The notes below the pieces were generated by a model. It worked only from the letters and a program-made list of their open reading frames with translations, had not been told where the DNA came from and searched no databases. This document shows positions 25,317 through 57,221 of a stretch of 64,000 nucleotides of DNA, in pieces (within the stretch, counting starts at the first letter, position 1; the number at the start of each line of letters is the position of its first letter). Origin of the DNA: an uncultured Thermoplasmatales archaeon (GTDB taxonomy: Archaea > Thermoplasmatota > E2 > DHVEG-1). The stretch is taken from the NCBI GenBank assembly GCA_964526175.1, contig CAZGIV010000001.1:882-64881 (forward strand). The letters are read 5' to 3'. The translations under genes and the position numbers were made by a program.

Positions 25317-25317
25317 C

Positions 25318-26205: not shown

Positions 26206-26744
26206 AGAAAGAAATCCGAATCTGTGGTTTTGGTGGTCAGGGTGTTATTTTAGCTGGTTTTATCATTGGAAAAGCAGCAACGGTATTCATGGATTATAAT
26301 GCAGTACAAAGTCAATCCTATGGCCCAGAGGCCCGGGGAGGCGCGGCTCGCTCTGAAGTGATCATTTCTGATGAAAAAATCGGTTACCCACGTCCAATAA
26401 GCGTTGATGTGTTCGTCGCCATGTCCCAGGAGTCATTTGATGCATATCGCAATGATATCCGGGATGATACTCGTATCGTGATTGATCCTGAGCTAGTGAC
26501 GAAACATAATATTGGCCGACCCGTCTACAAAGTACATGCACAGCAAATCGCTGAGAAACTCGGTAACAAAATTGTGACCAATATCGTGATGGTCGGAGCA
26601 GCAACAAGCATCATTGATTTATTGGAGCCTGAAGCAGTGAAAAAGGCTGTCATCGACAGTGTCCCAAGTAGGTTTAAAGAAATGAATGTCATGGCATTTG
26701 AAAAGGGATTAGAGGCAGGGAACAATGCCCTCAAAGAAAAATAA
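26202..26744 (+). CDS. korC: 2-oxoacid:ferredoxin oxidoreductase gamma subunit
   Basis: ICGFGGQGVILAGFIIG is the gamma-subunit signature. Overlaps korB by 4 nt. Confidence 0.7.
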   Translation: MKKEIRICGFGGQGVILAGFIIGKAATVFMDYNAVQSQSYGPEARGGAARSEVIISDEKIGYPRPISVDVFVAMSQESFDAYRNDIRDDTRIVIDPELVTKHNIGRPVYKVHAQQIAEKLGNKIVTNIVMVGAATSIIDLLEPEAVKKAVIDSVPSRFKEMNVMAFEKGLEAGNNALKEK

Positions 26745-29700
26745 TCAAAAAATGGATCATGATTTAGGGATACCCCTTTGCGATGATTATTTCTTCGATG
26801 AACCAGAAGCAATCGAACAAGAAGAAAAAATGCCTGAGCCAGCCAGTACTATCCAAAAAATCTCAGAGGTTGTAACACGGAAGAAAAAACGGATTATCTA
26901 CGGGGATGTACTCATTGTTGGAGCGGGAATCTCAGGAATGCAATCCGCTCTGGATATCGCAGACAAAGGATACAAAGTCGTTATCATTGATAAAACATCT
27001 ACGATCGGCGGGGCGATGGTAAAACTTGATAAAACATTTCCCACGAATGACTGCTCGATTTGTACCGCTGCCCCAAAAATGGTTGAGCTCGCTCGTCATC
27101 CAAATATTGAACTTATTACCTATGCTGAGATGAATAAACTTGTTGGTAAAAAAGGTGACTTTACCGCACAGATCTGGAAAAAAAGTAAATATGTTGACCC
27201 GGATAAGTGCACGGGATGCGGTGATTGCGCCGAAGTCTGTCCCGTTGAAATCATAAGTCCGTTTGATGAAAAAATATCGACACGAAAAGCTGTCTACATT
27301 GAATTTCCACAAGCAGTTCCAATCGTGTATACGGTCGATATCGAAAAGTGCGTTGGTTGTGGTTCTTGCGACAGGGTCTGCGAACCAGCAGCGATTAGTT
27401 TTTTAGAAAAATCAGAAGAAATTGAAGTTCATGCAGGAAGCATTATCATCGCGACCGGTTTTGAGGTCTTTGAACCAACAGAAATTCGAAAAGAATACGG
27501 ATACGGGAAATACGAAAACGTCCTCACCGCAATGCAAATCGAACGACTGCTTTCTTCGTTTGGACCAACCAGTGGTAAGGTCCTACGTCCCTCAGATTAT
27601 AAAAAACCAAAAAAAATCGGATGGATTCAATGTGTCGGCTCACGAAGCGAACAACAAGGGTACCCATATTGTTCACGTGTGTGCTGCATGTACGCAACCA
27701 AGGAAGCATCCATTGTCAAAGAATCAAATCCAGAGATAAACATCACTATTTATTATATGGATATCCGTGCCTATGGAAAGGATTTTCAACAATACTATGA
27801 TCATGCGAAAAAACTTGGAGTCAAATATGTTCGTGGACGACCATCCTCAGTATATGAGAATAAGAATAAGAGTCTGATAGTACGGTATAAGGATACCCTC
27901 ACAGGAAAAATCAAAGAGGATACGGTTGATCTGTTAGTCTTATCAACATCCATTATTCCTGCGAAAGGAAATAAGAAACTTGCAGAAATCATTGGCTTAG
28001 AAGTCGATGAAAATGGTTTTTTCAAACAGGAGTCTCTCCTTGAGAACCCAGTAGAATCCTCTAAAGAAGGCGTGTATCTGGCAGGATGTATCCAAGGACC
28101 AAAAGATATCCCGGATAGTGTTTCCATGGCCAGTGGGGCTGCTGCAAAAGCGGTTGCTCCGATTAAAGATCGACAACGACATATCGGCAAGGAATTTCCT
28201 CCTGAAAAAGACATTTCCAAAGAAGAGCCACGCATTGGTGTATTTGTGTGTCATTGTGGGAAAAACATTGCTGGGTATCTCGATGTTGAGAAAGTCACTG
28301 AGGAAGTAAAAAAACTTCCGAATGTTACTCATGCTGAACATGTCATGTTTGCCTGTTCACAGGATAGCGGTAAAAAAATCAAAGCTCTCATCAAAGAAAA
28401 AAACCTGAATCGTATTATTGTTGCAGCGTGCTCACCCCGGACCCATGGAGGGTTATTCCAAGATACCTTACTTGAAGCAGGGTTGAATAAATATTTGTTT
28501 GAAATGGCGAACATTCGAAATCAATGCTCATGGGTTCATTCGGATGATTGGGAGAAAGCAACCATAAAAGCTATTGATTTAGTAAAAGCATCTGTCGCAA
28601 AAGTATCTCTTCTTGAACCTCTCAGTGAGGAAGAGTTTTCCATTCTTCCAAGTGTGCTTGTCATCGGCGGGGGAATTTCAGGGATGAAAGCAGCACTGGC
28701 ACTTGCTGAGATGAATGTGAAATCCTATCTTATTGAACGAGAAAAAGAACTCGGTGGCCGCCTCAAACAACTCAATACGATGTTTCCTACAGATAAAAAA
28801 GCCCAGGACATCATCGATCCGTTAATTAAAAAAGTCACGACGAATAAATTGATAACGGTAATGACGGGTGCCGAGCTTGTTAGCATTGAAGGATTTATCG
28901 GGAATTATAAAGGGACAATTAAACAGAAAGGAAAAAAGAAACAGCTTGGCATTGGAACAATTATTGTCGCAACCGGTTTTCGAGAAATTGATCTTAAAGG
29001 AGAATATCAACATAAAATAAATGAAAATATTTTATCTCAGACAGAGCTTGAGGAAAAAATTAAAAAAGGGACATTGAAAAAACCCAAAAATGTCGTCATC
29101 ATCAATTGCGCAGGAGCAATGGATGAACAACGACCGTATTGTTGCCGTATTGGGTGTGGAGTTGCGATTAAAAACGCAAAAGTAATTAGTGAAAAGTACC
29201 CCGGCTCAAAAATCTATCTCTTATATCGTGACATGAGGGTGTTTGGGAAAGAGGAAGAAGAATATTATTCGAACGTTATTAAAAATCATCATGTGACGGT
29301 TATTCGCTATCCCGGTGAGAAAAAACCAGAGGTTATTCTTGATAAAAAAGATCCGAAAAAGGGTCCGATGAAGATTAAAGTCTATGATGATATCCTTGAA
29401 GAGGAGCTGACGCTTCCTGCAGATCTCGTTGTTCTTACCGTGAACACTGAAGGTGAGGTGCTGACAGAGTCGCTGAAGAACATGCTGAAGATACCAGCTG
29501 ATTCCGCAGGATTCTTTTTAGAGGCCCATGCAAAAATCCGTCCGTTGGATTTCGCAACCGATGGGATTTACCTTTGCGGAGCGGCCCATTACCCGAAGAA
29601 TCTCGTTGATTCTATTGCTCAAGCAGAAGGTGCTGCATCCCGTGCAGCAATCCCGATTATGCAGGAGAAAATGAAAGGAGAAGGCCAAGTTGCAGAAGTC

Positions 29701-29940
29701 AATGAAGAGTTGTGTAGTGGCTGTAAGACCTGTGAACAACTGTGTGCCTATTCTGCCATTGAGATAAAACCACGGCAGAATGACCCTGAACATTTTGTTG
29801 CTACGGTAAATAAAGCACTTTGTAAGGGATGCGGCTCATGCGCAGGAGCGTGCCCGTCCGGTGCGATCGAACAGAAAGGGTTCCGGAGTAAACAAATCCA
29901 AGTCATGCTTGAAGCACTCCTTGGGGCAGGTAAAAAATGA
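26725..29940 (+). CDS. hdrA: Tandem double-HdrA fusion: an N-terminal HdrA-like FAD/ferredoxin module lacking the CHCG N-domain, joined to a complete canonical HdrA. The start may be the Met at 26752, just after the korC stop.
   Basis: First FAD fold VLIVGAGISGMQSALDIADKGY with inserted ferredoxins CTGCGDCAEVCP and CVGCGSCDRVCEP plus YCSRVCCMYA. Then the canonical HdrA N-domain RIGVFVCHCGKNI...ACSPRTH...ANIRNQCSWVH. Second FAD fold VLVIGGGISGMKAALALAEMN. C-terminal CSGCKTCEQLC...CKGCGSCAGACPSGAI. Confidence 0.7.
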   Translation: MPSKKNNQKMDHDLGIPLCDDYFFDEPEAIEQEEKMPEPASTIQKISEVVTRKKKRIIYGDVLIVGAGISGMQSALDIADKGYKVVIIDKTSTIGGAMVKLDKTFPTNDCSICTAAPKMVELARHPNIELITYAEMNKLVGKKGDFTAQIWKKSKYVDPDKCTGCGDCAEVCPVEIISPFDEKISTRKAVYIEFPQAVPIVYTVDIEKCVGCGSCDRVCEPAAISFLEKSEEIEVHAGSIIIATGFEVFEPTEIRKEYGYGKYENVLTAMQIERLLSSFGPTSGKVLRPSDYKKPKKIGWIQCVGSRSEQQGYPYCSRVCCMYATKEASIVKESNPEINITIYYMDIRAYGKDFQQYYDHAKKLGVKYVRGRPSSVYENKNKSLIVRYKDTLTGKIKEDTVDLLVLSTSIIPAKGNKKLAEIIGLEVDENGFFKQESLLENPVESSKEGVYLAGCIQGPKDIPDSVSMASGAAAKAVAPIKDRQRHIGKEFPPEKDISKEEPRIGVFVCHCGKNIAGYLDVEKVTEEVKKLPNVTHAEHVMFACSQDSGKKIKALIKEKNLNRIIVAACSPRTHGGLFQDTLLEAGLNKYLFEMANIRNQCSWVHSDDWEKATIKAIDLVKASVAKVSLLEPLSEEEFSILPSVLVIGGGISGMKAALALAEMNVKSYLIEREKELGGRLKQLNTMFPTDKKAQDIIDPLIKKVTTNKLITVMTGAELVSIEGFIGNYKGTIKQKGKKKQLGIGTIIVATGFREIDLKGEYQHKINENILSQTELEEKIKKGTLKKPKNVVIINCAGAMDEQRPYCCRIGCGVAIKNAKVISEKYPGSKIYLLYRDMRVFGKEEEEYYSNVIKNHHVTVIRYPGEKKPEVILDKKDPKKGPMKIKVYDDILEEELTLPADLVVLTVNTEGEVLTESLKNMLKIPADSAGFFLEAHAKIRPLDFATDGIYLCGAAHYPKNLVDSIAQAEGAASRAAIPIMQEKMKGEGQVAEVNEELCSGCKTCEQLCAYSAIEIKPRQNDPEHFVATVNKALCKGCGSCAGACPSGAIEQKGFRSKQIQVMLEALLGAGKK

Positions 29941-30362
29941 AGAAGAAAATTGAGAAAAACAAAAAGTTTAGTAAGATCGTATTCAAAAAAGGAGGCCTTG
30001 CCAAGGAAGTTGAAGACCTCTGTGGAGAAAATCTGTTCGGGTGCTACCAATGCGGAACATGCTCCGCGGGATGTCCCTTTGTTGATGACATGGATCTCGC
30101 ACCCGATGAAGTCATCCGATATGTTGTTCTTGATCGGTCAGAGGTCCTGAGTTCAAAGACCATTTGGTTGTGTTCCTCATGTTTCACCTGTGCTGAACGA
30201 TGTCCACGTGACATTAATATTACAAAAATTATGGAGGCACTTCGTCAGATAATTCTTCGAAAAAAAATTGATCAGAGTAATCCAATAAAAATATCAAAAA
30301 AAGAGCGAGAATCTATTCCTCAGCTCGCCTTTGTAAGCTTGTTTAGAAAAAATGTTGGATAA
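29937..30362 (+). CDS. hdrC: Heterodisulfide reductase subunit C-like (2x[4Fe-4S])
   Basis: CYQCGTCSAGCP...CSSCFTCAERCP. Overlaps the hdrA stop by 4 nt. Confidence 0.7.
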   Translation: MKKKIEKNKKFSKIVFKKGGLAKEVEDLCGENLFGCYQCGTCSAGCPFVDDMDLAPDEVIRYVVLDRSEVLSSKTIWLCSSCFTCAERCPRDINITKIMEALRQIILRKKIDQSNPIKISKKERESIPQLAFVSLFRKNVG

Positions 30363-30376
30363 AAGAACAATAAAAA

Positions 30377-31282
30377 GTGAGTAGCATGAAACTGCTCTAT
30401 TACCCCGGATGTACCCTAAAAACCTCTGCAAAAAACCTTGAGAAGACAGCAATCGAAGTCACCAAGGCTCTTGGTCATGAACTAGTGGAAATGAAAGATT
30501 GGAATTGTTGTGGCGTAGTCGCTTCACTTACTAGCGATGATCTGATGCGTCACCTTGCCCCCTTACGGAATTTAATTCACGTGGAGGACGAAGGGGAAAA
30601 CAAGGTAATAACACTGTGTGATATGTGTTGTAACACATTAAAACAAACAAATCTTCGTGTGAAAGAAAAACCTGAGGACCTCAAGACGCTTAATGCGTTT
30701 ATGGACCGGGAGAATGACTATAAAGGAACTGTTTCCGTGCTTCACTTTCTTGAATTTCTCCGAGATGAAATCGGATTTGCCACGTTGAAAAAAAAGGTAA
30801 AAAATCCTTTAAAAGGGATAAAAATAATGCCCTATTACGGGTGCATGCTACTTCGTCCACGGGAAGTAAGTATCGATGACCCAGAAGAACCAACAATTCT
30901 CAGTGACCTGCTCAGATCCCTTGGCGCTGAGACTGTCGATAATCCGTTTAAAATAGAATGTTGTGGGTCGTACAATACCGTTGAGCAAAAAGAAATTGTT
31001 TCCCGAAGAGCACATCGAATCACAAGCTTTGCACTCGACCAAGGTGCTGATGCCATCGTACTCTCCTGTCCGTTATGCCGGTTTAATCTTGACATGAGAG
31101 GAAAAGAAGCAGAGAAACTTTTCAAGGGATACAAACAAATACCGGTCTATTATTACACCCAACTAATCGCAGTTTCATTAGGGCTTGACCATAGTGTCTA
31201 TGGTTTCGACCAGCATGTGGTTGATCCAACTCTATTGTTGAAAAAAAAGGGGATTTTAGAGAGTAGAAGGATAAAAATCTAA
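30377..31282 (+). CDS. hdrB: Heterodisulfide reductase subunit B-like (two CCG domains)
   Basis: LLYYPGCTLKTSAK...NCCGVV and ...ECCGSYN... are CCG-domain signatures. Confidence 0.7.
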   Translation: MSSMKLLYYPGCTLKTSAKNLEKTAIEVTKALGHELVEMKDWNCCGVVASLTSDDLMRHLAPLRNLIHVEDEGENKVITLCDMCCNTLKQTNLRVKEKPEDLKTLNAFMDRENDYKGTVSVLHFLEFLRDEIGFATLKKKVKNPLKGIKIMPYYGCMLLRPREVSIDDPEEPTILSDLLRSLGAETVDNPFKIECCGSYNTVEQKEIVSRRAHRITSFALDQGADAIVLSCPLCRFNLDMRGKEAEKLFKGYKQIPVYYYTQLIAVSLGLDHSVYGFDQHVVDPTLLLKKKGILESRRIKI

Positions 31283-31289
31283 AAAAAAC

Positions 31290-32309
31290 ATGGTGAATGG
31301 TATGAGTAAAGAAGAAAAGAAATCTCAATCAAAAGAAACAAAGAAATTACAGCTTGCGTTTTATTGGGCAGCGAGTTGCGGGGGATGCGAAATTGCGGTG
31401 CTCGATATTAATGAAAAAATTCTTGATGTCATCGCAATTGCAGACATCCTCTTTTGGCCGGTTGCGATAGATACAAAATACAAAGACGTCGAAGCAATGG
31501 CAGATAAAAGCATTGACGTCTGTTTCTTTAATGGTGCGATTCGAACAACAGAACAAGAACATCTTGCCAACCTCCTTAGGAAAAAAGCAAAGGTGCTCGT
31601 TGCGTTTGGCGCCTGTGCAGTCAACGGGGGCATCCCTGGTCTTGCCAATGTAGCAAACAGAGAGGAAGTATTCAAGGTCGCTTATCTCGATAACCCTTCG
31701 ACAGAGAATCCAAAGAAAATCACTCCGAAAACATCTGTGAAAGTCAAGGAAGGAACATTGACTCTTCCTGAATTTTATGACACGGTAAAAAGTCTCAATC
31801 AAGTAGTTGATGTTGATTACTATCTGACTGGTTGTCCACCAACACCGGATATGATTATGACTGCTGTCGGTGCAATTGTTGAAAATAAACTTCCACCAAA
31901 AGGTTCGATTATTGCTCCCTTGAAATCGGTATGCGATGAATGTCGGTTTGAAAAATCTGAAAAGAAAATCAAGCAAATCAAACGAGTCTATGAACTCGAA
32001 AAATTCGAGGAGAAATGCCTGCTTGAACAAGGAGTCATCTGCATGGGACCTGCCACACGAGGTGGATGTAGTGCACGCTGTTTAGATGCCAATATGCCCT
32101 GCACCGGATGCGGTGGCCCAACACCTAATTCTCTTGACCAAGGAGCAAAAATGATCTCAGCACTTGCCTCGATTCTTGGGTTGGAAGGTGAAGAAAAAAT
32201 GAGCGATGAAGAGGTTGATAAATTGATTGATCAAGTCGTTGATGTCACGGGAACGTTTTATAAGTATACGTTACCAACCTCTCTTATTAACCGGAAGGTG
32301 ATAAAATGA
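31290..32309 (+). CDS. mvhG: [NiFe] hydrogenase small subunit (F420-non-reducing Mvh-type, MvhG-like)
   Basis: AASCGGCEIAVLDINEKILD is the proximal-cluster motif. C-terminal Cys clusters. Precedes the large-subunit gene with a 4-nt overlap. Confidence 0.65.
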   Translation: MVNGMSKEEKKSQSKETKKLQLAFYWAASCGGCEIAVLDINEKILDVIAIADILFWPVAIDTKYKDVEAMADKSIDVCFFNGAIRTTEQEHLANLLRKKAKVLVAFGACAVNGGIPGLANVANREEVFKVAYLDNPSTENPKKITPKTSVKVKEGTLTLPEFYDTVKSLNQVVDVDYYLTGCPPTPDMIMTAVGAIVENKLPPKGSIIAPLKSVCDECRFEKSEKKIKQIKRVYELEKFEEKCLLEQGVICMGPATRGGCSARCLDANMPCTGCGGPTPNSLDQGAKMISALASILGLEGEEKMSDEEVDKLIDQVVDVTGTFYKYTLPTSLINRKVIK

Positions 32310-33763
32310 AAACAATAACAATTGATCCAATCACACGATTGGAAGGACATGGAAAGATCAGTATCTTCCTTAATGACGAAGGAGATGTTGAAAATGCCTA
32401 TCTTCAGATCCCGGAGCTTCGGGGGTTTGAGCGGTTTTCCCAAGGACGCCGCGCAGAGGATATGCCTCAGATAACCTCTCGAATCTGCGGGGTGTGCCCT
32501 GTCGCTCATCATTTTGCTGCAACAAAAGCTCTTGATGCAGCATTTCATGTTGATCCACCCTCCGCGGCAAAGAAACTCCGAGAATTAATGTATGCCGGAT
32601 ATTTTATCTATGATCATATCCTTCATTTCTACTACTTGGGCGGACCAGATTTCGTTGTTGGACCGGATGCACCACCAGCGAAACGTAATATTATCGGTGT
32701 TATTGAGAAAGCAGGGGTAGAAATCGGAAAAGAAGTCATAAAACATCGCGCGTACGGCCAGAAAATAACAGCCATCCTTGGAGGAAAAGCGACCCATCCT
32801 GTGTGTGGTCTTCCTGGTGGTGTATCAAAATCACTGTCAAAGGAGGAAGTAAAAGACATTGAGACGATGGCAAAATCCTGTGTTGAATTCGCTAAGTTTT
32901 CCTTAAAATTATTTGATGATATCGTACTGAAAAACAAAACCTATGTTGATTTAATTCTCAGTGACCCGTATCAACTTGCGACCTACAACATGGGAATGGT
33001 CGATAAAAACAACAAAATCAATTTCTATGACGGAACCGTGCGGGTCACCGACCAAAAAGGAAAAGAGATCGTAAGATTCAACCCAGAAGAATACACTAAA
33101 CATATCGTTGAACATGTTGAAGAATGGAGTTATATAAAATTCCCCTATCTTAAGAAAATCGGATGGAAAGGCTTTATCGATGGAAAAGACAGCGGCATTT
33201 ATCGCGTTGGCCCGCTTGGTCGTTTGAACGCTTCTGAGGGAATGGCAACACCGCTTGCAGATAAGGAGTACAAAAAAATGTTTGAGACTCTTGGCGGAAA
33301 GGCAGTGAACTCAACGCTAGCGTTTCACTGGGCACGGCTCATTGAACTACTCTATGCAACGGAGCGATCTATGGAGCTGATTCAGGATCCTGAAATCACA
33401 TCGGATAAGATCCGTAACCCAGTTGGCGAACCAGGGGAAGGGGTTGGTATTGTGGAAGCAGCCCGTGGAACCCTTATTCATCATTACAAGCTTGATAAAA
33501 AAGGGTTAATCGAAAAAGCAAACCTTATTGTTGCTACCACGAACAACGCAGGTGCCATTAACATGTCGGTCAGAAACGCAGCAAAGGGAGTAATTAAGAA
33601 AGGAAACGTGAGTAACGGTATCCTCAACATGGTGGAAATGGCGTTCCGTGCCTATGATCCTTGCTTTGCGTGTGCAACCCATACACTTCCTGGTGGAATG
33701 CCCCTTGAAGTCAACATCTATGACCATAAGAAAAGTTTGTATAAGACATTTAAAAGGATGTAG
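32306..33763 (+). CDS. mvhA: [NiFe] hydrogenase large subunit (MvhA-like)
   Basis: N-terminal RLEGHGKI. RICGVCPVAHHFAA. C-terminal DPCFACATH Ni-binding motif. Confidence 0.75.
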   Translation: MKTITIDPITRLEGHGKISIFLNDEGDVENAYLQIPELRGFERFSQGRRAEDMPQITSRICGVCPVAHHFAATKALDAAFHVDPPSAAKKLRELMYAGYFIYDHILHFYYLGGPDFVVGPDAPPAKRNIIGVIEKAGVEIGKEVIKHRAYGQKITAILGGKATHPVCGLPGGVSKSLSKEEVKDIETMAKSCVEFAKFSLKLFDDIVLKNKTYVDLILSDPYQLATYNMGMVDKNNKINFYDGTVRVTDQKGKEIVRFNPEEYTKHIVEHVEEWSYIKFPYLKKIGWKGFIDGKDSGIYRVGPLGRLNASEGMATPLADKEYKKMFETLGGKAVNSTLAFHWARLIELLYATERSMELIQDPEITSDKIRNPVGEPGEGVGIVEAARGTLIHHYKLDKKGLIEKANLIVATTNNAGAINMSVRNAAKGVIKKGNVSNGILNMVEMAFRAYDPCFACATHTLPGGMPLEVNIYDHKKSLYKTFKRM

Positions 33764-33775
33764 AGGAAAACAGAG

Positions 33776-34267
33776 ATGAAGACCATTGTCTTAGGGATCG
33801 GAAATCCAATTCTTCGTGATGATGGGGCCGGGATTCATGTTGCCCATCAGCTGAAACACTACATAACAGACCAAAAAGTTACCATTGACGAGGCATACAC
33901 CGGTGGGATGAATCTTCTTGATATGATGATTGGCTACGACAAAGCAATTCTTATCGATACCGTCAACATTGCAGATGCAAAGAATGGTGAAGTAAAACGA
34001 TTGACGCTTCAGAACTCCAGTGCTACGTGTCACTCCTGCAATCCCCATGACGTCTCTCTTCAGGAAGCCCTCAGACTTGCAGAAAAACTTGGTGAAAAGA
34101 ATATTCCAAAGGAGATTATCGTAATTGGTATTGTTGTAAAAGAAATACCGATTCAGTTTGGGGAACAATTAAGTAAAAACATCCAAGCGGCAGTACCAAA
34201 AGCTGTTGAAATGACATTACTTGAATTAAAAAAAATCCAACGAAGGAGGAAAAAAGAACTAACATAA
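33776..34267 (+). CDS. Hydrogenase maturation endopeptidase (HycI/HybD/FrhD family)
   Basis: MKTIVLGIGNPILRDDGAGIHVA is the N-terminal signature of the family. Confidence 0.65.
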   Translation: MKTIVLGIGNPILRDDGAGIHVAHQLKHYITDQKVTIDEAYTGGMNLLDMMIGYDKAILIDTVNIADAKNGEVKRLTLQNSSATCHSCNPHDVSLQEALRLAEKLGEKNIPKEIIVIGIVVKEIPIQFGEQLSKNIQAAVPKAVEMTLLELKKIQRRRKKELT

Positions 34268-34291
34268 AAAAATTTGAGGTGAGCACAGAAG

Positions 34292-34723
34292 ATGAAAAAA
34301 GAATTTGAACCAAACATCATAGGCTTTCTCTGTAACTGGTGTAGTTATGCAGGAGCAGACCTTGCAGGAACCAGTCGACTGAAATACCCTTCGAATATTA
34401 AATCGATTCGGGTCATGTGTTCAGGTAGAGTCGACCCTATCTTTATTCTGGAAGCGTTAAAAAAAGGTGCTGATGGTGTTCTTGTCGCAGGATGTCATCC
34501 CGGAGATTGTCATTATCAATCAGGTAATTATAAGACAAATCGGCGAATAAAACTATTAAAGAAACTTCTTGGGGAACTCGGGGTTGAACCCGAGCGAGTA
34601 CGTTTTGAATATATCTCAGCATCAGAAGGACAGAAATTCGCTCAAGTTGTCACTGATTTTGTTGCTGAGTTAAAAAAACTTGGACCAAATCCAATTAAGG
34701 AAGAAACATGCATATCGATATAA
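34292..34723 (+). CDS. mvhD: MvhD-like hydrogenase/Hdr-associated [2Fe-2S] subunit
   Basis: IGFLCNWCSYAGADLAGTSR...IRVMCSGRVDP...GCHPGDCHY is the MvhD/FlpD signature. Confidence 0.7.
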   Translation: MKKEFEPNIIGFLCNWCSYAGADLAGTSRLKYPSNIKSIRVMCSGRVDPIFILEALKKGADGVLVAGCHPGDCHYQSGNYKTNRRIKLLKKLLGELGVEPERVRFEYISASEGQKFAQVVTDFVAELKKLGPNPIKEETCISI

Positions 34724-36138: not shown

Positions 36139-36163
36139 ACGATCTTGTTATGAGGGAGTAATT

Positions 36164-38306: not shown

Positions 38307-38787
38307 TTCAAAAAAATTAGATCCGAATTTTAAATATGAAGTATCTGCAGAAATTGGTGGAACAAATATTAATCGATGTTTCGCCTGTGGAACCTGTACC
38401 GCAGGATGCCCCGTCCGTGAGATTGATGAAAAATATAATCCACGAAAAATCATCCACATGGTATTGCTTGGGATGAGAGAACGTGTATTAAAAAGTGATT
38501 TCATCTGGCTCTGTTCTACCTGTTACACTTGTTATGATCGATGCCCGCAGGATGTACAATTAACCAGCATTATGACCGCATTAAAAAACATCGCGGCGCG
38601 TGAGGGATATATCCATCCGTCCTTTAAGGAACAAAACCGTCTTGTAAGCACCTTTGGACGATTATATGAAGTCGAAGATTTTGATAATAAAAAACGAGAG
38701 AAACTAGGTCTACCCCCTATACAAAAGACATTTGAAGATCTCACAAAACTTATGCATGATATGCTACCAAAAGAGGTGACGAAATGA
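38299..38787 (+). CDS. hdrC: Heterodisulfide reductase subunit C-like
   Basis: CFACGTCTAGCP...CSTCYTCYDRCP. The likely start is ATG 38299 (SD GGAGG 8 nt upstream), overlapping the lplA-like stop by 8 nt. The ORF track begins at 38266. Confidence 0.65.
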   Translation: MIDSKKLDPNFKYEVSAEIGGTNINRCFACGTCTAGCPVREIDEKYNPRKIIHMVLLGMRERVLKSDFIWLCSTCYTCYDRCPQDVQLTSIMTALKNIAAREGYIHPSFKEQNRLVSTFGRLYEVEDFDNKKREKLGLPPIQKTFEDLTKLMHDMLPKEVTK

Positions 38788-44632: not shown

Positions 44633-44701
44633 AAAAAAAATATATGCGTCTCATAGTTCTACATGCATGACATAATGGGGTGCTGAGCGGATGGCGAAGG
44701 T

Positions 44702-45130
44702 ATGACTGAGCGATTTGAACCATCGATTCTTGCATTTTTGTGTAACTGGTGCAGTTATGCAGGAGCAGATCTTGCTGGTACTAGCCGGATGCAGTACCCG
44801 ACGAATGTGAAAATAATTCGGGTGATGTGCTCTGGTCGGGTGAATCCTTCCTTTGTGTTAAATGCGATGCAGAGTGGTATTGATGGTGTTATTATTGGAG
44901 GATGTCATCCAGGGGAATGTCACTACAACCAGGGGAATTATCTCACACGACGTCGTATTACTCTGCTCAAACTGCTCCTAGAATACGTCGGGATTGACCC
45001 TCGTCGTGTTCAAATGACCTGGGTGTCTGCTTCCGAAGGTGGTAAATTTGCTGAGGTGATGAAAAAGGTTACTGAGGAGATTCGAAAGCTTGGTCCCATT
45101 CAGCAAATAAAAAGGAGTAATGAATGGTAG
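44702..45130 (+). CDS. mvhD: MvhD-like [2Fe-2S] subunit (second copy)
   Basis: ILAFLCNWCSYAGADLAGTSR...IRVMCSGRVNP...GCHPGECHY. Confidence 0.7.
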   Translation: MTERFEPSILAFLCNWCSYAGADLAGTSRMQYPTNVKIIRVMCSGRVNPSFVLNAMQSGIDGVIIGGCHPGECHYNQGNYLTRRRITLLKLLLEYVGIDPRRVQMTWVSASEGGKFAEVMKKVTEEIRKLGPIQQIKRSNEW

Positions 45131-46077
45131 AGATTTCGCAAATTCAAGCAGAAGCAAGAAAAATTTTTGATACCTATGACGTGCAATATATTTTAGGGTA
45201 TTCAAACGAATCGTTCGGGATTCAGCCTGTACCGTTTTTTGCGAAAAAGAAACCGGATGTCAACCATCTTATTTTCTCTCCGTTTTGTGTGAATAATCTT
45301 ACGATGTATCTGAAAAATTATGAGGGAAATGAAAAAATTGGTATTGTCGTGAAAGGTTGTGATAGCCGCTCATTAATCCAATTAATTATAGAAAAGAGGA
45401 TACCTCGTGAAAATCTTGTCATTATTGGAATCTCTTGCGGTGGCGTTATCGATCAGAAAAAATTTCAAACCAAGTTCCCCGATGTTATCGGCTCAGTAGA
45501 TGTTGTAGAAAAAGATGACCTGTTTATTTTCACCATTGCTGGAAAGAAGCATCAGGTTTCAAAGAAAGAAGTTCTGTTAGAGAAATGCATCCATTGTGAG
45601 TACCCTACTCCGTTGCTGTATGATGTTCTTCTGGGAGAAAAAAAACAGCCTTTTAAATCGGAGAGTTATTCTGATGTGAAACAAATTGAGGCAAAATCCC
45701 TTCAGGAGAAATGGAATTTTTGGGAAAAACAGTTTAGTCGTTGTATCCGATGTTATGCGTGTCGAAATATCTGTCCAGTCTGTTTTTGTAAAGAGTGTTC
45801 AGCTGAGCAGTTAAACCCGCAATGGCTGAGACGGTCAGTAACAATTTCAGAAAACACGGTATGGCATTTGACAAGAGCGTTACATGTTGCTGGACGCTGT
45901 ACAGGATGTGGTGAATGCGAACGCGTTTGTCCAATGAGTATCCCATTAATGTTGCTCAATAAGAAAATGCTCAAAGAGGTAAAAGATTTATTTGAGTATA
46001 CGCCAGGAATATCTGTTGATGCTAAACCTCTTCTCGCTGCCTATAAACCCGATGACCCAGAGGATTGTATCATTTAG
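45124..46077 (+). CDS. FrhB/FdhB-family-like Fe-S (flavo)protein
   Basis: The N-terminal region (...KIGIVVKGCDSRSLIQLI...ISCGGVIDQ...) resembles the FrhB-type fold. C-terminal Cys clusters CIRCYACRNICPVCFC and CTGCGECERVCP. The call rests on recalled family features only. Confidence 0.35.
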   Translation: MVEISQIQAEARKIFDTYDVQYILGYSNESFGIQPVPFFAKKKPDVNHLIFSPFCVNNLTMYLKNYEGNEKIGIVVKGCDSRSLIQLIIEKRIPRENLVIIGISCGGVIDQKKFQTKFPDVIGSVDVVEKDDLFIFTIAGKKHQVSKKEVLLEKCIHCEYPTPLLYDVLLGEKKQPFKSESYSDVKQIEAKSLQEKWNFWEKQFSRCIRCYACRNICPVCFCKECSAEQLNPQWLRRSVTISENTVWHLTRALHVAGRCTGCGECERVCPMSIPLMLLNKKMLKEVKDLFEYTPGISVDAKPLLAAYKPDDPEDCII

Positions 46078-46085
46078 GTGAATGA

Positions 46086-47108
46086 ATGAAAAGCTATACG
46101 ATAAAAAAAGATAAAGTATCTGATTTTATTTCACATCTGATAAAGAAGAATATTGTCTGGGGGCCAGTAAAGCAAGACGATACCATTATCTATAAACAAA
46201 TCAACACACCTCAGGAGATAACCCTTGATTTTTTAAAGGTAAAAATACCACCGAAAACAATTGTTTTTCCTCAAACAGAGACGTTAGTACGCTTTCATAA
46301 AGAAAAAGACGTCACGACTGAGACACCATCACCCGAAAAAAAGGACGCCATTATCTTTGGAGTTAGACCCTGCGACGCAAAAAGCTTCCTTCTTTTTGAT
46401 GCAGTGTTCAAAGGTGATTGCGAAGACCCGTTTTATTGCTCAAAAAGAGCTACGACAATTTTGATTGGTCTAACATGTATAAACCCACCAATGAATTGTT
46501 TTTGTTCAAGCGTTGGAGGAAACCCTGATGATCCAAGCGGGCTTGACATTCTCCTCACTGATATGACAGATTCATATTATATGGAGATTATTACTGAACG
46601 AGGAGAACACCTCCTAAAGGATTTTATCGGACGTACAGAAGCAACTCAACAAGATACGAAAAAGAGAGACACCATCTGTACGCAAGCCAAAAAAAGTATC
46701 AAACGTCAGGTTTCTGTTGAACGTATCGATTCAATTCTTGATGCAATCTTTGACTCGCCATACTGGGAAACCATAGCACAACGATGCATTGGATGTGGAA
46801 TCTGTACGTTTCTATGCCCAACCTGTCATTGTTTCGACATCCAGGATGAATCATCACAAAACAAAGGGGCACGTGTTCGCATCTGGGACTCCTGTATGTT
46901 CTCAGAATACTCGTGCCATGCCTCTGGGTATAACCCACGAGCGACACAAATGAACCGAGTGCGAAATCGGATCTATCATAAATTTAATTATCTTCTTAAA
47001 AACAATCAGGTTCTAGGTTGTGTAGGATGCGGAAGGTGTATTGACGAATGCCCTGTTCATATTGATATTGTAGAAATTATCAAGAATGCACGGGGGGTGA
47101 AACAGTAA
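46086..47108 (+). CDS. Sulfhydrogenase/anaerobic sulfite reductase beta (HydB/AsrA-like) Fe-S subunit
   Basis: CIGCGICTFLCPTCHCFD and CVGCGRCIDECPVH. Paralog of the minus-strand gene 55411-56451. Confidence 0.55.
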   Translation: MKSYTIKKDKVSDFISHLIKKNIVWGPVKQDDTIIYKQINTPQEITLDFLKVKIPPKTIVFPQTETLVRFHKEKDVTTETPSPEKKDAIIFGVRPCDAKSFLLFDAVFKGDCEDPFYCSKRATTILIGLTCINPPMNCFCSSVGGNPDDPSGLDILLTDMTDSYYMEIITERGEHLLKDFIGRTEATQQDTKKRDTICTQAKKSIKRQVSVERIDSILDAIFDSPYWETIAQRCIGCGICTFLCPTCHCFDIQDESSQNKGARVRIWDSCMFSEYSCHASGYNPRATQMNRVRNRIYHKFNYLLKNNQVLGCVGCGRCIDECPVHIDIVEIIKNARGVKQ

Positions 47109-47941
47109 AAAACCCGTACCTACCTCTCCCGGCAACCATTGAACATATCGTTGAAGAAGTTGGTGGGCAACGAGCGATTAAAACATTCCGGTTAGTTTTT
47201 ACAAATGTAAAAAACAAGCAGGAGTTTGCCTTTCGTCCAGGTCAATGTGTCATGGTTGGTCTTTTAGGAATCGGAGAATGTATGTTTGCGATCTCATCGT
47301 CTCCGACAAAGAAAGAGTTTGTTGAAATAAGTGTCATGAGACATGGGAAAGTTACCAATGCATTGCATAATTGTAAACCAGGGGATTCTGTTGGAATCCG
47401 CGGCCCCTATGGCAATGGCTTTCCTGTTGACAACTGGAGGGGAAAAAACCTCGTATTTATCGGTGGAGGAATCGGCCAAGCACCACTCCGGCCAGTCATT
47501 CAATATGTGATTAATAATCGAAAACAGTATGGAACTATCGATATTTTTTATGGTGCAAGAACCTCGCAAGAGCTTTGTTATAAAAATGAATTTATTGAAT
47601 TAGAAAAACATACTGATTTAAACGTTCATCTCTCAGTTGACAGCGAAGAAAAAGAATGGAAGGGGTTCACAGGGTTTGTTCCTGAAAATCTTAGAAGGAT
47701 AAAACCAGCAGCAAAAAACAGTATTGCAATTACCTGTGGCCCTCCTATAATGATTAAAATCGTTATCGATAATCTCATTCACCTTGGTTTTCCTGAGACG
47801 AATATTTTTACCACGTTGGAAATGAGGATGAAATGCGGTATCGGGAAATGCGGCCGATGTAATGTTGGTCCATTGTATGTCTGTAAGGACGGACCAGTGT
47901 TTTCCTATGATCAATTACACCATATCAAGGGAGAACGATGA
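47105..47941 (+). CDS. Sulfhydrogenase gamma / AsrB / PyrK-like FAD-NAD(P)H oxidoreductase subunit with a C-terminal [2Fe-2S]. The 5' boundary is unresolved: the conserved N-terminus has no canonical start codon.
   Basis: Homology to the paralog (MKNEYQFYPAIIKKIVKE...) begins at (V)KNPYLPLPATIEHIVEEV, encoded from 47105. The codon there is GTA and overlaps the upstream TAA stop. There is no in-frame ATG/GTG/TTG until Met 47252. NAD/FAD motifs GGGIGQAPLRPV. C-terminal CGIGKCGRCNVGPLYVCKDGPVF. Confidence 0.5.
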   Translation, partial: VKNPYLPLPATIEHIVEEVGGQRAIKTFRLVFTNVKNKQEFAFRPGQCVMVGLLGIGECMFAISSSPTKKEFVEISVMRHGKVTNALHNCKPGDSVGIRGPYGNGFPVDNWRGKNLVFIGGGIGQAPLRPVIQYVINNRKQYGTIDIFYGARTSQELCYKNEFIELEKHTDLNVHLSVDSEEKEWKGFTGFVPENLRRIKPAAKNSIAITCGPPIMIKIVIDNLIHLGFPETNIFTTLEMRMKCGIGKCGRCNVGPLYVCKDGPVFSYDQLHHIKGER

Positions 47942-50900: not shown

Positions 50901-52473
50901 AAATAACTTATTTACTTGTTCTCAGGATACACAGACCCATATCAAGGACATCATTAATGAGTATGATATTAACCGGGTCGTTGTTGCTTCATGTACACCA
51001 CGAACTCATGAACCATTATTCCAAGAAACAATTCGGGAAGCAGGATTAAATCCTCATCTTTTTGAGATGGCAAACATCCGAGATCAGTGCTCCTGGGTGC
51101 ATATGAAGGAGCCAAAAGAGGCAACAGAGAAAGCAAAGGATCTTCTTCGAATGGCGGTTTCAAAAGCAGCATTATTACAACCGTTACCAATCGTAACACT
51201 GCCCGTGAATCAAAATGCGTTGGTGATCGGTGGTGGACTTACTGGATTAATCGCTTCAGTCAAGTTAGCTGAAGAAGGTTTCCCCGTGTATTTAGTTGAG
51301 AAAGAAAAAGAACTTGGTGGGAACCTCCGACATATTTATTCGACAATTAATGGAGGAGATGTACAATCATTCCTTCATAATTTAATTCAGAAAGTTAAGG
51401 ATAATTCCCACATTCATGTTTTCACAGACACACAAATCGATTCTCTCAACGGCTATGTCGGCAATTTTACAACCGTTATTAAGAATAGGAATGATACCAA
51501 GGAATTGCACCATGGAATTATCCTAGTAGCAACCGGTGCACAAGAATATCAGCCCTCTGAGTATCTTTATGGCAAAGATACACGAGTCCTTACGCAACGT
51601 GAATTTGAACAACTGTTGACAAAAAAAGAAGTTCCTGTACAAAAACCAGAAACCATTGTGATGATTCAATGCGTTGGCTCCCGAGATGAGCAACGACCGT
51701 ATTGTAGTAGAATCTGTTGTACAGAGGCAATAAAGAACGCATTAAATTACTCAGATCAAAACAAAAACGCTGCTATTTACGTGTTATATCAAGATATCCG
51801 GACATATGGGTTCAGAGAGGAATATTATCAAAAGGCACGAGAAAAAGGGATTGTCTTTCTTCATTATACCCCTGAGAAAAAACCAATCGTGCAGAATACG
51901 AATGGAAAGCTAACGATACGTATATACGATGTTATTTTAGGTGAGGATGTTCTCATTGACGCTGATTATTTGGTGTTAAGCACAGGAATAATTCCCCTGC
52001 CCGAGAATCAGTTGTTATCAAAGCTTCTTAAAGTTCCATTGAATGAAGATGGATTCTTCTTAGAAGCACATGTGAAACTCCGACCAGTGGATTTTGCAAC
52101 GGATGGGATCTTTCTTGCGGGTTTTGCGCATTCTCCAATGTTTATTGAAGAAAGTATTGCACAAGCCTGCGCTGCTGTCTCTCGTGCTTGTACGATTTTA
52201 AGTAAAGAATCACTGAAGCTTCCTGGAACAATCGCTAAGGTCAATGAAGAGCGATGTGCCGGTTGTGGGTTATGCGAACAGGTTTGTGTCTACAAGGCCA
52301 TTGAACTGGTAAAAAAGAAGATAAAAGGTAAAGAGCAGTTAGTCGCGATCGTCAATGAGGGGATATGTAAAGGGTGCGGGGTATGTGCAGGTGCCTGTTT
52401 TTCAGGAGCAATCACCCATAGAGGGTATAAAGATGAACAAATCCTTGCTATGATACACTCAATGGAAAAATAA
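47938..52473 (+). CDS. hdrA: Second giant HdrA-GltD fusion (1511 aa). It has the same architecture as 39665-44632 and carries two tracts converted against that gene.
   Basis: VLVVGGGISGIQSALDLANSGF...NDCSMC.... GltD-like KVAIVGSGPAGITAAYDLSKLGY and IIGGGNVAMDSARTARRLGG. ...YCSSVCCTYA.... N-domain RVGVFICHCGSNI...CTPRTH...ANIRDQCSWVH. ALVIGGGLTGLIASVKLAEEGF. C-terminal CAGCGLCEQVC...CKGCGVCAGACFSGAI. Confidence 0.7.
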   Translation: MNESQRNANGKKPVEKPSKVVSQVLVVGGGISGIQSALDLANSGFKVYLVEKKPSIGGVMAQLDKTFPTNDCSMCILSPKLVESGRHPNIEILTGSNVEQVNGQAGHFQVTIRKHSRFVDIEKCKSCGDCRDVCPVIQSNVFEEKLCNRNAIYQLFPQANPSAYVIEKQGVSPCRIACPAGLNAHAFIALASQEKYAEAYELIKETIPLPGSLGRICYHPCETECNRKDIEEPLSICRIRRFIADYMYEHPETLSDYQKNKNEKQLERNQKGRGNDQKVAIVGSGPAGITAAYDLSKLGYKPTIFEAEKYNGGMLHYGVPDYRLPKEYLHKEIDLLCQDQQIELKNNQKLGRDFTLQDLKKQGYKAIFLAIGAHKSRSAGIEGCTGTDTCALEGVEYLKQLNRNMITLDYFKGKKILIIGGGNVAMDSARTARRLGGNVTVVYRRTIKEMPAHQEEINQAEEEGIEFIFLTAPTQLQKREKETCLQCVRMELGEPDASGRRRPKKIPESEFDISCDFTIFAIGQELDTKLMEENKIDIGENRFIKVDPITLLTSQDGVFAGGDAVTGPASAVEAIAAGHQAAISIDRYLHDEDQKKGREPQPQKKADIPKQTIHIHSSRETPLFLSPEERIKSFVEIDQGFTKEQFQREVKRCLNCAGCCECFQCVQHCEPDAIDHTMKDKTITLDVGSIILSPGFDEFQPEIKREYGYRRFPNVITSIEFERILSASGPYAGHVVRPSDQKEPRKIAWIQCVGSRDVKLNKNYCSSVCCTYAIKEAVIAKEHAPNIQPTIFYMDMRTYGKGFESYYNRAEKEYGVRFVRCRISSVEEDKKTKNLSIKYETEEGTLKKEDFDLVVLSVGLSSPDDAESLSTVFGVKLNQYNFASTTSFEPFHTTTSGIYVAGAFSGPKDIPETVTQASGAAALASALLSKARGDCVTVKQYPPLKDVQYSTPRVGVFICHCGSNIGGFLDVSSITEYSKNLPFVVYAENNLFTCSQDTQTHIKDIINEYDINRVVVASCTPRTHEPLFQETIREAGLNPHLFEMANIRDQCSWVHMKEPKEATEKAKDLLRMAVSKAALLQPLPIVTLPVNQNALVIGGGLTGLIASVKLAEEGFPVYLVEKEKELGGNLRHIYSTINGGDVQSFLHNLIQKVKDNSHIHVFTDTQIDSLNGYVGNFTTVIKNRNDTKELHHGIILVATGAQEYQPSEYLYGKDTRVLTQREFEQLLTKKEVPVQKPETIVMIQCVGSRDEQRPYCSRICCTEAIKNALNYSDQNKNAAIYVLYQDIRTYGFREEYYQKAREKGIVFLHYTPEKKPIVQNTNGKLTIRIYDVILGEDVLIDADYLVLSTGIIPLPENQLLSKLLKVPLNEDGFFLEAHVKLRPVDFATDGIFLAGFAHSPMFIEESIAQACAAVSRACTILSKESLKLPGTIAKVNEERCAGCGLCEQVCVYKAIELVKKKIKGKEQLVAIVNEGICKGCGVCAGACFSGAITHRGYKDEQILAMIHSMEK

Positions 52474-54544: not shown

Positions 54545-54561
54545 AGTGTTATTTCAACCTC

Positions 54562-57216: not shown

Positions 57217-57221
57217 ACATC

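Follow-up and report, generated by a model that had tools for sequence, protein, structure and literature searches.

Fused double-HdrA proteins of an uncultured Thermoplasmatales archaeon, two of them carrying a circularly permuted NAD(P)H cassette

A stretch of 64,000 nucleotides from the genome of an uncultured Thermoplasmatales archaeon (GenBank assembly GCA_964526175.1, contig CAZGIV010000001.1, positions 882 to 64,881 of the forward strand; hereafter the window) encodes three fused double-HdrA proteins, namely A1071 (26725-29940, + strand, 1071 residues), which has no NAD(P)H insert, and the HdrL-type proteins B1655 (39665-44632, +, 1655 residues) and C1511 (47938-52473, +, 1511 residues), which carry an inserted cassette for nicotinamide adenine dinucleotide, phosphorylated or not (NAD(P)H). 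The double-HdrA design is real, far above chance, widespread and already described, in HdrL, in HdrA variants of anaerobic methanotrophic archaea (ANME) and in BamE. The interpretation preferred here, and a rather probable one, is that the product of each gene is an asymmetric HdrA dimer, fused covalently and containing a single working bifurcation unit, to which the cassette of B1655 and C1511 adds a non-bifurcating NAD(P)H port. It draws on the observed domain order, the complementarity of the two halves, their conservation, the permutation of the cassette, its similarity to Bfu and Stn modules, and synteny.

The three open reading frames (ORFs) lie where an earlier note on this DNA had placed them and have the lengths it gave, and the HdrA-likeness that it had proposed is borne out by matches of each protein to HdrA structures (5ODC, 8RVU, 9SFI, 7BKB) in three or four stretches with E values of about 1e-195 to 1e-217. 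Each of the three contains, by Pfam, repeated flavin adenine dinucleotide (FAD)/NAD Rossmann and 4Fe-4S ferredoxin domains, and the NCBIfam models of HdrA and HdrA2 score them below the cutoffs (1022-1045 vs 1100 and 724-804 vs 1400, respectively). By residue-level alignment, half 1 of A1071 (residues 61-481) corresponds to residues 145-566 of 5ODC_A, the thioredoxin reductase (TrxR)-like FAD core with its inserted ferredoxin, and retains the Cys-pair motif FPTNDCSIC (Cys194/Cys197 in 5ODC numbering), the cluster motif C386/C399/C403/C404 and Lys409, the residue that hydrogen-bonds FAD N5 in HdrA (PMC6405883). In A1071 itself, a disordered N-terminal extension (residues 1-53; 26725-26883, +), with a predicted local distance difference test score (pLDDT) of 26-41, precedes TrxR/FAD core 1 (residues ~56-481), which contains Cys110/Cys113 and the inserted 2x[4Fe-4S] ferredoxin (CTGCGDCAEVC, CVGCGSCDRVC; residues ~152-232; 27178-27420, +), a domain found in half 1 only. 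Half 2 (residues ~500-1071) corresponds to residues 2-238 and 319-648 of 5ODC_A, skipping the inserted ferredoxin (239-318), and consists of a CHCG N-domain that stands between the two TrxR cores (residues ~500-640; 28222-28644, +; C509, C511, C544 and C569 invariant), TrxR/FAD core 2 (residues ~641-985) and a C-terminal ferredoxin (residues ~986-1055). At the site of the Cys pair, half 2 reads FPTDKKAQD where HdrA has FPTNDCSIC. B1655 and C1511 have the same complementary pattern of halves: half 2 of B1655 (42941-44599, +) comprises an N-domain (residues ~1093-1232), core 2 (residues ~1233-1570), in which the CVGSR..C..CC..K motif is retained and neither the Cys pair nor the inserted ferredoxin is present, and a C-terminal ferredoxin (residues ~1571-1645), and half 2 of C1511 begins at residue ~950.

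Alignment to 5ODC shows that the first part of all three proteins lacks the CxCG N-domain, as the earlier note had said, but its description of the second part as a complete canonical HdrA fails, for the inserted ferredoxin and the Cys194/Cys197 pair are missing there. N-domain, Cys pair, inserted ferredoxin and C-terminal ferredoxin occur once per polypeptide, and a FAD-binding TrxR fold with N5 lysine and a four-Cys cluster motif is present in both halves. A canonical HdrA, in which the four elements occur together in one homodimeric unit of ~650 residues, is matched by none of the halves; the 673-residue HdrA encoded elsewhere in the window (58081-60102), an internal control, has all of them within one unit. 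Of the best B1655 homologs listed, 120 out of 120 have a single Cys-pair motif, near residue 55, and a single CxCG N-domain, within residues 920-1140. In an alignment of 74 diverse family members (40-98% identity), the invariant residues, in A1071 numbering, are C110 and C113, the ferredoxin cysteines, C303/C316/C320/C321/K326 of core 1, the N-domain cysteines, and C795/C806/C811/K816 of core 2. The A1071 family differs from B1655 and C1511 in the cluster motif of half 2, which reads C..CC...C (C795, C806, C807, C811; window 29107-29172) and not C..C...CC, so spaced that the fourth ligand appears to be shifted. Two homologs of A1071 are 48 residues shorter (1023 residues), and the true start of A1071 may be an internal methionine such as Met36.

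The AlphaFold2 model of A1071, built from the 74-sequence alignment, has a mean pLDDT of 84.5 and a predicted template-modelling score (pTM) of 0.86; apart from the termini, pLDDT falls below 50 only at residues 104-109 (the loop of the Cys pair) and 600-605 (the Cys loop of the N-domain). The N-domain cluster of HdrA is ligated by cysteines of the N-domain and by Cys197 of the other HdrA subunit (Chadwick et al. 2022), and the two low-confidence loops of the model would coincide with the elements expected to form this shared cluster site. In Foldseek comparisons of the model, one half matches the HdrA core 8RVU_a with a template-modelling (TM) score of 0.96 at 50% identity and the other matches full-length HdrA with TM 0.78-0.80; no PDB chain spanning both halves was found by Foldseek (query-normalised TM <=0.49). 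From the model, the halves are inferred to pack like the HdrA homodimer. According to the published wiring, the arm of one HdrA serves the FAD' of its partner, together with HA4', which leads towards HdrBC, and HA5', which belongs to the inserted ferredoxin (PMC12350162). Two cores with a complementary N-domain and Cys pair, the mark of the fused dimers BamE, ANME HdrA3/4 and the HdrA of Moorella MetFV-Hdr, are present in each of the window proteins.

BamE of Geobacter metallireducens is one of the closest described counterparts: cryo-electron microscopy (cryo-EM) of class II benzoyl-CoA reductase shows it to be a fused HdrA dimer in which the TrxR1 FAD bifurcates, with Lys280 at 3.4 A from N5 and the Cys59-Cys62 pair nearby, whereas the TrxR2 FAD, with Gln768 at N5, is away from the branch point and regarded as structural; electrons of low potential leave through the inserted ferredoxin, and the module is completed by the MvhD-like adaptor BamF and the HdrBC-like subunit BamD (bioRxiv 10.64898/2026.04.10.717634). 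Like BamE, the window proteins combine in one polypeptide a fused HdrA dimer, an N-terminal TrxR1 with an N5 lysine and a CxxC near residue 60 (Cys61/Cys64 in B1655), a single inserted ferredoxin that serves as the low-potential exit in BamE, a C-terminal ferredoxin that BamF feeds in the BamE system, and HdrBC-like partners. They differ from it in keeping lysine in both halves where the second FAD of BamE has glutamine, and in their partners, which are BamGHI and the tungsten-containing BamBC in the one case and Mvh hydrogenase, 2-oxoacid oxidoreductase and Flx-like proteins in the other; furthermore, no NAD(P)H cassette is reported in BamE, which is compared here by its description and not by sequence. 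The window proteins agree with this description in domain order, and by analogy each of them would contain one complete bifurcation unit centred on the flavin of half 1. The covalent pseudo-dimer of the earlier note is supported in this form by the complementary and invariant Cys pair and N-domain of the 74 members, by the pTM of 0.86 and by the BamE structure, but appears asymmetric, with a single complete bifurcation unit.

In B1655 and C1511 the ferredoxin of half 1 is interrupted between its two Cys motifs by an insert (residues ~158-800 and ~169-657, respectively) that contains the GltD/NfnB-type unit with its Fe-S domain seen in the earlier note (Pfam Fer4_20, PF14691, and Pyr_redox_2; NfnB/GltD chains at 1e-55 to 1e-119), and the built-in NAD(P)H site that the note derived from it is supported. 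The note's two Rossmann folds hold for C1511; B1655 has three, one for FAD and two for NAD(P), and the unit is also permuted. The cassette of B1655 (40136-42064, +) runs from a Fer4_20 head (PPC163..C167P, C206, C210, C214) through a FAD Rossmann domain (GSGPAG264), NAD(P) copy 1, a linker, NAD(P) copy 2 and the C-terminal piece of the FAD domain to a Fer4_20 tail (residues ~767-800; 41963-42064, +) that ends in QRC796LSC799 and aligns to the canonical N-terminus of NfnB/NfnL. It begins at PPCMNACP, equivalent to NfnB residue ~46, and its last ~35 residues (...FEEVELPLTEEQARLEAQRCLSC) align to residues 6-46 of NfnB/NfnL, so that the first ~29 positions of the Fer4_20 profile are located after the flavin domains and not in the collinear order of NfnB/NfnL. 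When tail and head are joined, the Fer4_20 score of B1655 rises to 114.1 bits (profile positions 1-110) from 81.4 bits for the head alone (positions 30-110), and that of C1511 to 92.8 from 63.0 bits; Cys796 and Cys799 of the tail are invariant in the family. The cassette is, judged by these alignments and scores, circularly permuted.

The closest solved relatives of the cassette are the Bfu-type NfnA modules 9N5U and 9BOV (~1e-120) and StnC (8OH5_C, 1e-102), ahead of canonical NfnB/NfnL (4YLF_B at 2e-86 and 5JCA_L at 2e-82), and in Foldseek comparisons its predicted fold deviates from the Bfu/Stn modules by a root-mean-square distance of 4.3-6.3 A and from NfnB by ~11 A. Alignments to 9N5U_A, 9BOV_A and 8OH5_C show the same permuted order, with a PxCxxxCP start and an RCLxC end. 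A Glu of NfnB/NfnL ligates the proximal [4Fe-4S] cluster in Nfn structures. This ligand position is occupied by Lys229 in B1655 and Arg240 in C1511, aligned with the Glu of 4YLF_B and 5JCA_L (LERF), and by K in 36, H in 14, R in one and E in none of 51 family members; the ligand of the FAD-proximal cluster in StnC and NfnA is a lysine. The flavin of StnC does not bifurcate and hands electrons from NADPH to a chain of clusters (8OH5). B1655 also shares with the Bfu-type NfnA and StnC modules the YRR motif of NADPH binding, and all of these cassettes are insertions in a larger Fe-S scaffold, which is NuoG/Fdh-like in Bfu and Stn and a ferredoxin domain of HdrA in the window proteins; the second, NADH-type Rossmann domain of B1655 and the arginine in place of lysine in C1511 are points of difference. 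In sequence and predicted fold the nearest relatives of the cassette are thus the NADPH modules of Bfu-type NfnA and StnC, which do not bifurcate, rather than the bifurcating NfnB, and the NAD(P)H unit appears to be the same permuted, insertable cassette that the Bfu/Stn transhydrogenases use. On this comparison, the NfnB-like second bifurcating flavin implied by the earlier note, which had spoken of coupling without a separate Nfn enzyme, is not upheld.

In B1655 the first NAD(P) domain (GGGNVA396, YRRS) is collinear with NfnB, and the extra copy (GGGNVA562, CVES; residues ~545-690; 41297-41734, +) has a counterpart in no solved homolog among the PDB matches; the cassette of C1511 has a single NAD(P) domain with the motif YRRT. 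By the general rules of Rossmann folds, which govern the assignment to NADPH or NADH, copy 1 would be NADPH-like and copy 2, with its acidic signature, NADH-like. Across phyla, copy 1 is 52-62% identical and clusters with single-domain YRR forms and copy 2 is 57-66% identical and clusters with single-domain CLE[ST] forms, as compared with 38% identity between the two copies of one protein; by these sequence comparisons, the copies are old, conserved paralog groups. A model of residues 1-1090 of B1655 (pLDDT 79.1, pTM 0.72) shows, at moderate confidence, the same Rossmann secondary-structure pattern in both copies, with a low-confidence linker (residues 500-533) between them. That HdrL of the B1655 type is an Hdr-coupled NADH/NADPH transhydrogenase, in which the two domains, tethered by a flexible linker, let both nucleotides exchange hydride at the one flavin of the cassette, is a doubtful proposal; if true, HdrL would do the job of Nfn/Stn by a different design, with HdrA bifurcation and the disulfide or H2 couple as the driving force.

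In the mechanism proposed here, in which the identity of the bifurcating flavin, the direction of electron flow and the substrates are inferred, half 2 would act as the mobile arm, with the [4Fe-4S] cluster of its N-domain and with the C-terminal ferredoxin, which would dock MvhD. Half 1 would supply the Cys194/Cys197-type pair, the FAD with its N5 lysine, the cluster of the TrxR domain that feeds HdrC/HdrB, and the sole inserted ferredoxin as the low-potential exit; the flavin of half 2 is most likely structural or accessory, because it has neither an arm nor an exit branch of its own. A1071, which has the genes of a 2-oxoacid:ferredoxin oxidoreductase, HdrCB and an Mvh hydrogenase as neighbours, is predicted to couple H2, ferredoxin and disulfide in the manner of Mvh-Hdr. 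In B1655 and C1511, where the permuted GltD/NfnL-like cassette (two [4Fe-4S] clusters, FAD and an NAD(P)H site) splits the inserted ferredoxin, the cassette may be a plain, non-bifurcating port between NAD(P)H and Fe-S clusters; since it is wired to the low-potential exit, NAD(P)+/NAD(P)H would take the docking place of ferredoxin, and the two proteins would couple NAD(P)(H), the HdrBC disulfide/dithiol and a third partner, a hydrogenase or an Flx-like module, through MvhD. The potential of NAD(P)+ is -320 mV. It may be speculated that at the very low H2 pressure of sediment, ~1 Pa, H+/H2 has a potential of about -260 mV and falls between NAD(P)H and the disulfide, so that H2-driven reduction of NAD(P)+ would need bifurcation and, in reverse, NAD(P)H and thiol together would drive the release of H2.

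Several points weigh against this mechanism. With H2 at standard pressure, NAD(P)+ on the low-potential branch would waste driving force, and the arrangement would be sensible only at low H2 or with other partners; HdrBC would need a disulfide substrate in this non-methanogen; hdrBC is not adjacent to C1511, the nearest sets being those at 38266-39665 and 56689-58103; the N5-proximal arginine of the cassette, equivalent to Tm R187 and Pf R201, which in NfnB are hydrogen-bonded to FAD N5, is invariant (51 of 51 members), though non-bifurcating StnC keeps the same arginine; and GxGxxG, the acidic residue of beta-2 and the N5 lysine are retained in half 1 as well as in half 2 (K326 and K816, both invariant), because of which a second active flavin is possible. 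The earlier note had asked if a bifurcating FAD environment is kept by one half only, which the N5 lysine, invariant in both halves of the 74 sequences, does not bear out.

A different assignment of the branches, possible though well short of probable, makes NAD(P)H the mid-potential donor, as in FlxABCD-HdrABC, with the HdrA flavin bifurcating to the HdrBC disulfide and, through the arm of MvhD and C-terminal ferredoxin, to a low-potential acceptor. The potential of -320 mV suits a donor better than a low-potential acceptor, HdrL has been proposed to oxidize NADH for sulfite/DsrC reduction, and HdrABC/HdrL are abundant in Syntrophobacter only when sulfate is present; in 78 related loci, MvhD often leads on to Fe-S proteins instead of hydrogenase. 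The canonical entry and exit branches would, however, have to swap roles; all solved HdrA-type systems use the inserted ferredoxin as their low-potential exit, and C1511 is already served on the MvhD side by a separate NAD(P)H dehydrogenase of the Flx-like kind.

The reading of the insert put forward in the earlier note and by Chadwick et al., that it is a second bifurcation site of the NfnB type, at which NADPH reduces the cassette flavin and one electron passes over the two [4Fe-4S] clusters to the low-potential HdrA chain or ferredoxin and the other to an NfnA-like partner, so that the protein has two bifurcating flavins and replaces Nfn, is unlikely. The homology of the insert to NfnB/NfnL is strong at the E values given above, yet the cassette is closer in both sequence and fold to the non-bifurcating Bfu/Stn modules and shares the permuted topology of StnC and NfnA; the arginine equivalent to NfnB R187 is invariant, but the glutamate ligand occurs in none of the 51 members, which have K, H or R instead. 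As a marker for bifurcation by the cassette the N5 arginine was rejected as uninformative, being present in non-bifurcating StnC too, where it lies 6 A from FAD N5. A flavoprotein of the HydG/AsrB/NfnA family with FAD, NAD and [2Fe-2S] is encoded directly 5' of C1511, in favour of this reading, but it scores 203-233 bits with HydG/AsrB models and 70 bits with the NfnA/SudB model (cutoff 220) and is accompanied by HydB-like Fe-S proteins, as in Flx; among the genes neighbouring B1655, profile scores reveal no adjoining NfnA-like flavoprotein. Two bifurcation sites together with NADPH-linked confurcation were proposed for the ANME proteins (Chadwick et al. 2022).

Equally improbable is a pseudo-symmetric dimer in which both HdrA halves are active, with two bifurcating flavins that each feed their own HdrBC and with losses that have pruned redundant ports. 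The FAD motifs, four-Cys cluster motif and N5 lysine are invariant in each half, and the window contains three hdrCB sets and one HdrD-like gene; against this, each flavin in the published wiring needs the arm of its partner and an inserted ferredoxin of its own (PMC12350162), whereas half 1 has no arm to offer half 2 and half 2 has no inserted ferredoxin, the second FAD of BamE is structural and off the branch point, and the half-2 cluster motif of the A1071 family is altered (CC-x3-C). That the three long ORFs arose artificially, through a frameshift or an assembly error that merged neighbouring hdrA and gltD genes, is next to impossible, for although the window probably comes from a metagenome assembly and an exact 260-bp repeat in B1655 and C1511 could disturb assembly, the best 120 homologs listed per query are full-length (1465-1838 residues for B1655 and about 1023-1085 for A1071), homologs from independent samples and phyla agree in length and in the positions of the motifs, the junctions between domains are conserved, and the A1071 protein is on record unchanged, as P0121, on at least three contigs, one of them from sequencing run SRR8557488.

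The repeat joins 42395-42654 of B1655 to 50239-50498 of C1511, where the background identity is ~71%. A second block of 100% identical codons pairs residues ~1170-1200 of B1655 with ~1027-1057 of C1511; its synonymous sites are 100% identical, as compared with 52-64% in most other conserved windows, which rules out purifying selection as the cause of the blocks and suggests that the paralogs have undergone recent gene conversion or that the assembly has collapsed. The nearest genome record to the window is DATLAF010000182.1 (isolate SMAG_U14264, an uncultured Thermoplasmatota archaeon), at 98% identity; an exact-sequence look-up of B1655 gave no record.

The three genes belong to an Hdr island that is conserved as a whole in close Thermoplasmatota relatives. 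Directly 5' of A1071 are the alpha, beta and gamma genes of the 2-oxoacid:ferredoxin oxidoreductase (24135-26744, +), the last of which overlaps the start of A1071, and directly 3' are hdrC (141 residues) and hdrB (301 residues; together 29937-31282, +), followed by the small and large subunits of an Mvh-type [NiFe] hydrogenase, a HycI-type maturation protease and MvhD (31290-34723, +), a GlcD/D-lactate-dehydrogenase-like FAD oxidase with an HdrD/GlcF-like Fe-S/CCG protein (34708-37267, +) and a lipoate-protein ligase (37203-38306, +). B1655 lies directly 3' of hdrC (173 residues) and hdrB (293 residues; 38266-39665, +) and directly 5' of mvhD (44702-45130, +), which is followed by an Flx-like trio (45124-47941, +), consisting of a 317-residue Fe-S protein, a 340-residue HydB/ShyB/AsrA-like protein and the HydG/AsrB-like FAD/NAD/[2Fe-2S] protein, and then by C1511. 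A complete group-3b, sulfhydrogenase-type [NiFe] hydrogenase (alpha, delta, gamma, beta; 52484-56451, - strand) is convergent with C1511. A fourth Hdr set, absent from the list of the earlier note, comprises hdrC (175 residues), hdrB (293 residues) and the canonical hdrA (56689-60102, +); this HdrA has the Cys-pair motif FPTLDCSSC, the N-domain and both the inserted and the C-terminal ferredoxin, the second Cys motif of the inserted one being atypical (C301..C309..C315..C319). Two different cytoplasmic hydrogenases, one Mvh-type and one of group 3b, are thus encoded beside the Hdr genes of the window.

The statement of the earlier note that all three large genes sit with HdrBC and MvhD homologs holds for A1071 and B1655 and not for C1511, whose MvhD gene lies 2.8 kb upstream within the same gene string, with none directly 3' and no adjacent HdrBC; its further observation that one gene directly follows sulfhydrogenase beta/gamma-like subunits is correct, the HydB/ShyB-like and HydG-like genes preceding C1511. 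In the 78 related loci, which belong to many phyla, HdrCB, the Flx-like trio and MvhGA recur around the large gene, and an MvhD homolog stands directly 3' of it in many, across phyla. Reportedly, the genes for FlxABCD-HdrABC in Desulfovibrio encode FlxA with FAD, NAD and [2Fe-2S], the Fe-S proteins FlxB and FlxC, and the MvhD-like FlxD, together with hdrA. The genes at 44702-47941 plus C1511, namely MvhD (FlxD-like), two HydB/AsrA-like proteins (FlxB/C-like), the HydG/AsrB-like protein (FlxA-like) and an HdrA-type gene, presumably represent the same gene content, with the differences that the order is reversed (D-C-B-A), a fused HdrL replaces the canonical HdrA, and hdrBC is not adjacent. The HydG/AsrB-like gene, listed at 47252-47941 (229 residues), lacks the first ~50 profile positions; its frame is open from 47066, and the upstream part encodes a good N-terminus (KNPYLPLPATIEH...), at the start of which relatives have ATG or TTG and the window has GTA. 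By this comparison the start codon is probably non-canonical or lost and the real protein ~275 residues long, its gene overlapping the HydB-like one at the latter's end. A selenocysteine codon and a frameshift were both rejected as explanations of the missing N-terminus, the frame being open with no in-frame TGA from the N-terminal motif to Met-47252.

The lipoate-protein ligase gene inside the hdr cluster (37203-38306, +) has the same place in close relatives, and a stand-alone GcvH-like lipoyl carrier (16963-17397, -; PF01597, 1.7e-37) is encoded ~20 kb from the cluster with no other glycine-cleavage genes beside it. By analogy, lplA and the GcvH-like carrier recall the sHdr/LbpA systems of sulfur oxidizers, which makes a lipoyl protein a candidate disulfide substrate. 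The GlcD-like and HdrD/GlcF-like genes between two hdr sets are also conserved in relatives, and a LarA-type lactate racemase is encoded upstream (12207-13475, +); lactate or another 2-hydroxyacid may feed this electron-transfer island. A trio of genes at 8981-12123 (-), for a DAO-type FAD dehydrogenase with BFD [2Fe-2S] (496 residues), a Pyr_redox_2 protein (422 residues) and a DUF1667 protein (134 residues), looks like another multi-subunit flavoenzyme; near it are genes of fumarase, succinyl-CoA synthetase and a fumarate-reductase-like flavoprotein (22224-23870).

HdrL was defined as a large HdrA fused to a unit like the small subunit of glutamate synthase, with one or two NAD(P)H-binding domains (Strittmatter 2009), and this describes both C1511, with one such domain, and B1655, with two. 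B1655 also shows the HdrL trait of mvhD directly 3', which C1511, with mvhD upstream, does not. HdrL1-3 of Desulfobacterium autotrophicum and Sfum_0824 of Syntrophobacter fumaroxidans are likewise followed by mvhD, often with hdrABC and an Fe-S protein, and loci of Desulfobacterota match residues 1-1650 of B1655 at 46-54% identity with the same neighbours; the tandem architecture of HdrL is judged through these uncultured Desulfobacterota as proxies, with the D. autotrophicum HdrL and Sfum_0824 compared by description only. Differences from HdrL are that some bacterial HdrL contain selenocysteine, of which none was seen in the window proteins, that the host of B1655 and C1511 is an archaeon (Thermoplasmatota), and that HdrL is described in the literature searched at the level of Pfam domains, without the complementarity of the double HdrA, the permuted cassette or the NADPH/NADH split. 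HdrL was still a matter of hypothesis in 2025.

In ANME, fused HdrA3/4 and NfnB-inserted HdrA9/10/11 have been described (Chadwick et al. 2022). The fused proteins, like those of the window, consist of two HdrA with complementary N-domain and Cys197, but their N-domain is in the N-terminal half, the opposite of the order found here, and fusion and NfnB insertion are separate in that paper and combined in B1655 and C1511; the insertion, there called ANME-1-specific, is found here in more than a dozen phyla. The literature searched, whose searchable coverage is limited, contained no enzymology or structure of an insert-bearing member, and no description of the permutation, the Bfu/Stn affinity or the NADPH/NADH split, an absence that this coverage leaves unproven. 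To the earlier note the interest depended on the architecture not being both common and characterized: it is common in databases and named in the literature, and no biochemical characterization was found in the literature searched.

Full-length relatives with 46-98% identity occur in more than a dozen phyla, including Thermoplasmatota, Bathyarchaeia and Promethearchaeota among the archaea and, among the bacteria, Thermodesulfobacteriota (Syntrophobacterales, Syntrophaceae, Desulfomonilaceae), Chloroflexota, Planctomycetota, Aminicenantia, WOR-3, Cloacimonadota, Neomarinimicrobiota, Fibrobacterota, Bacillota, Aerophobetes and Atribacterota. A genome scan confirmed 152 places among species-representative genomes, and the database labels of the relatives are merely "FAD-dependent oxidoreductase" or "HdrA-like polyferredoxin". 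Double-HdrA fusions of a third class, with ~1552-1581 residues (P0014, P0017, P0053, P0061, P0062 and others), have an insert with a FAD Rossmann motif, two extra CxxCxxCxxxC motifs (at ~390 and ~425) and no GGGN-type NAD(P) motif, which from these motifs looks like a different cassette at the same insertion site. In P0054 (1726 residues), P0098 (1816 residues) and P0112 (1838 residues) an MvhD domain (PF02662) is fused to the same polypeptide, which supports a fixed partnership of HdrL and MvhD.

The window proteins are not a new kind of system but further members of a known, biochemically little-studied family, to which the window adds, within one operon island, a three-way comparison of no insert, one NAD(P) domain and two NAD(P) domains, as well as a testable prediction of mixed NADPH/NADH specificity. 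The family is one of flavin-based bifurcation in uncultured sediment archaea (Thermoplasmatota, Bathyarchaeia, Asgard) and many anaerobic bacteria, and an NAD(P)H entry point in the HdrA wiring would bear on models of the balance that these organisms keep between H2, ferredoxin, NAD(P)H and thiols close to the thermodynamic limit.

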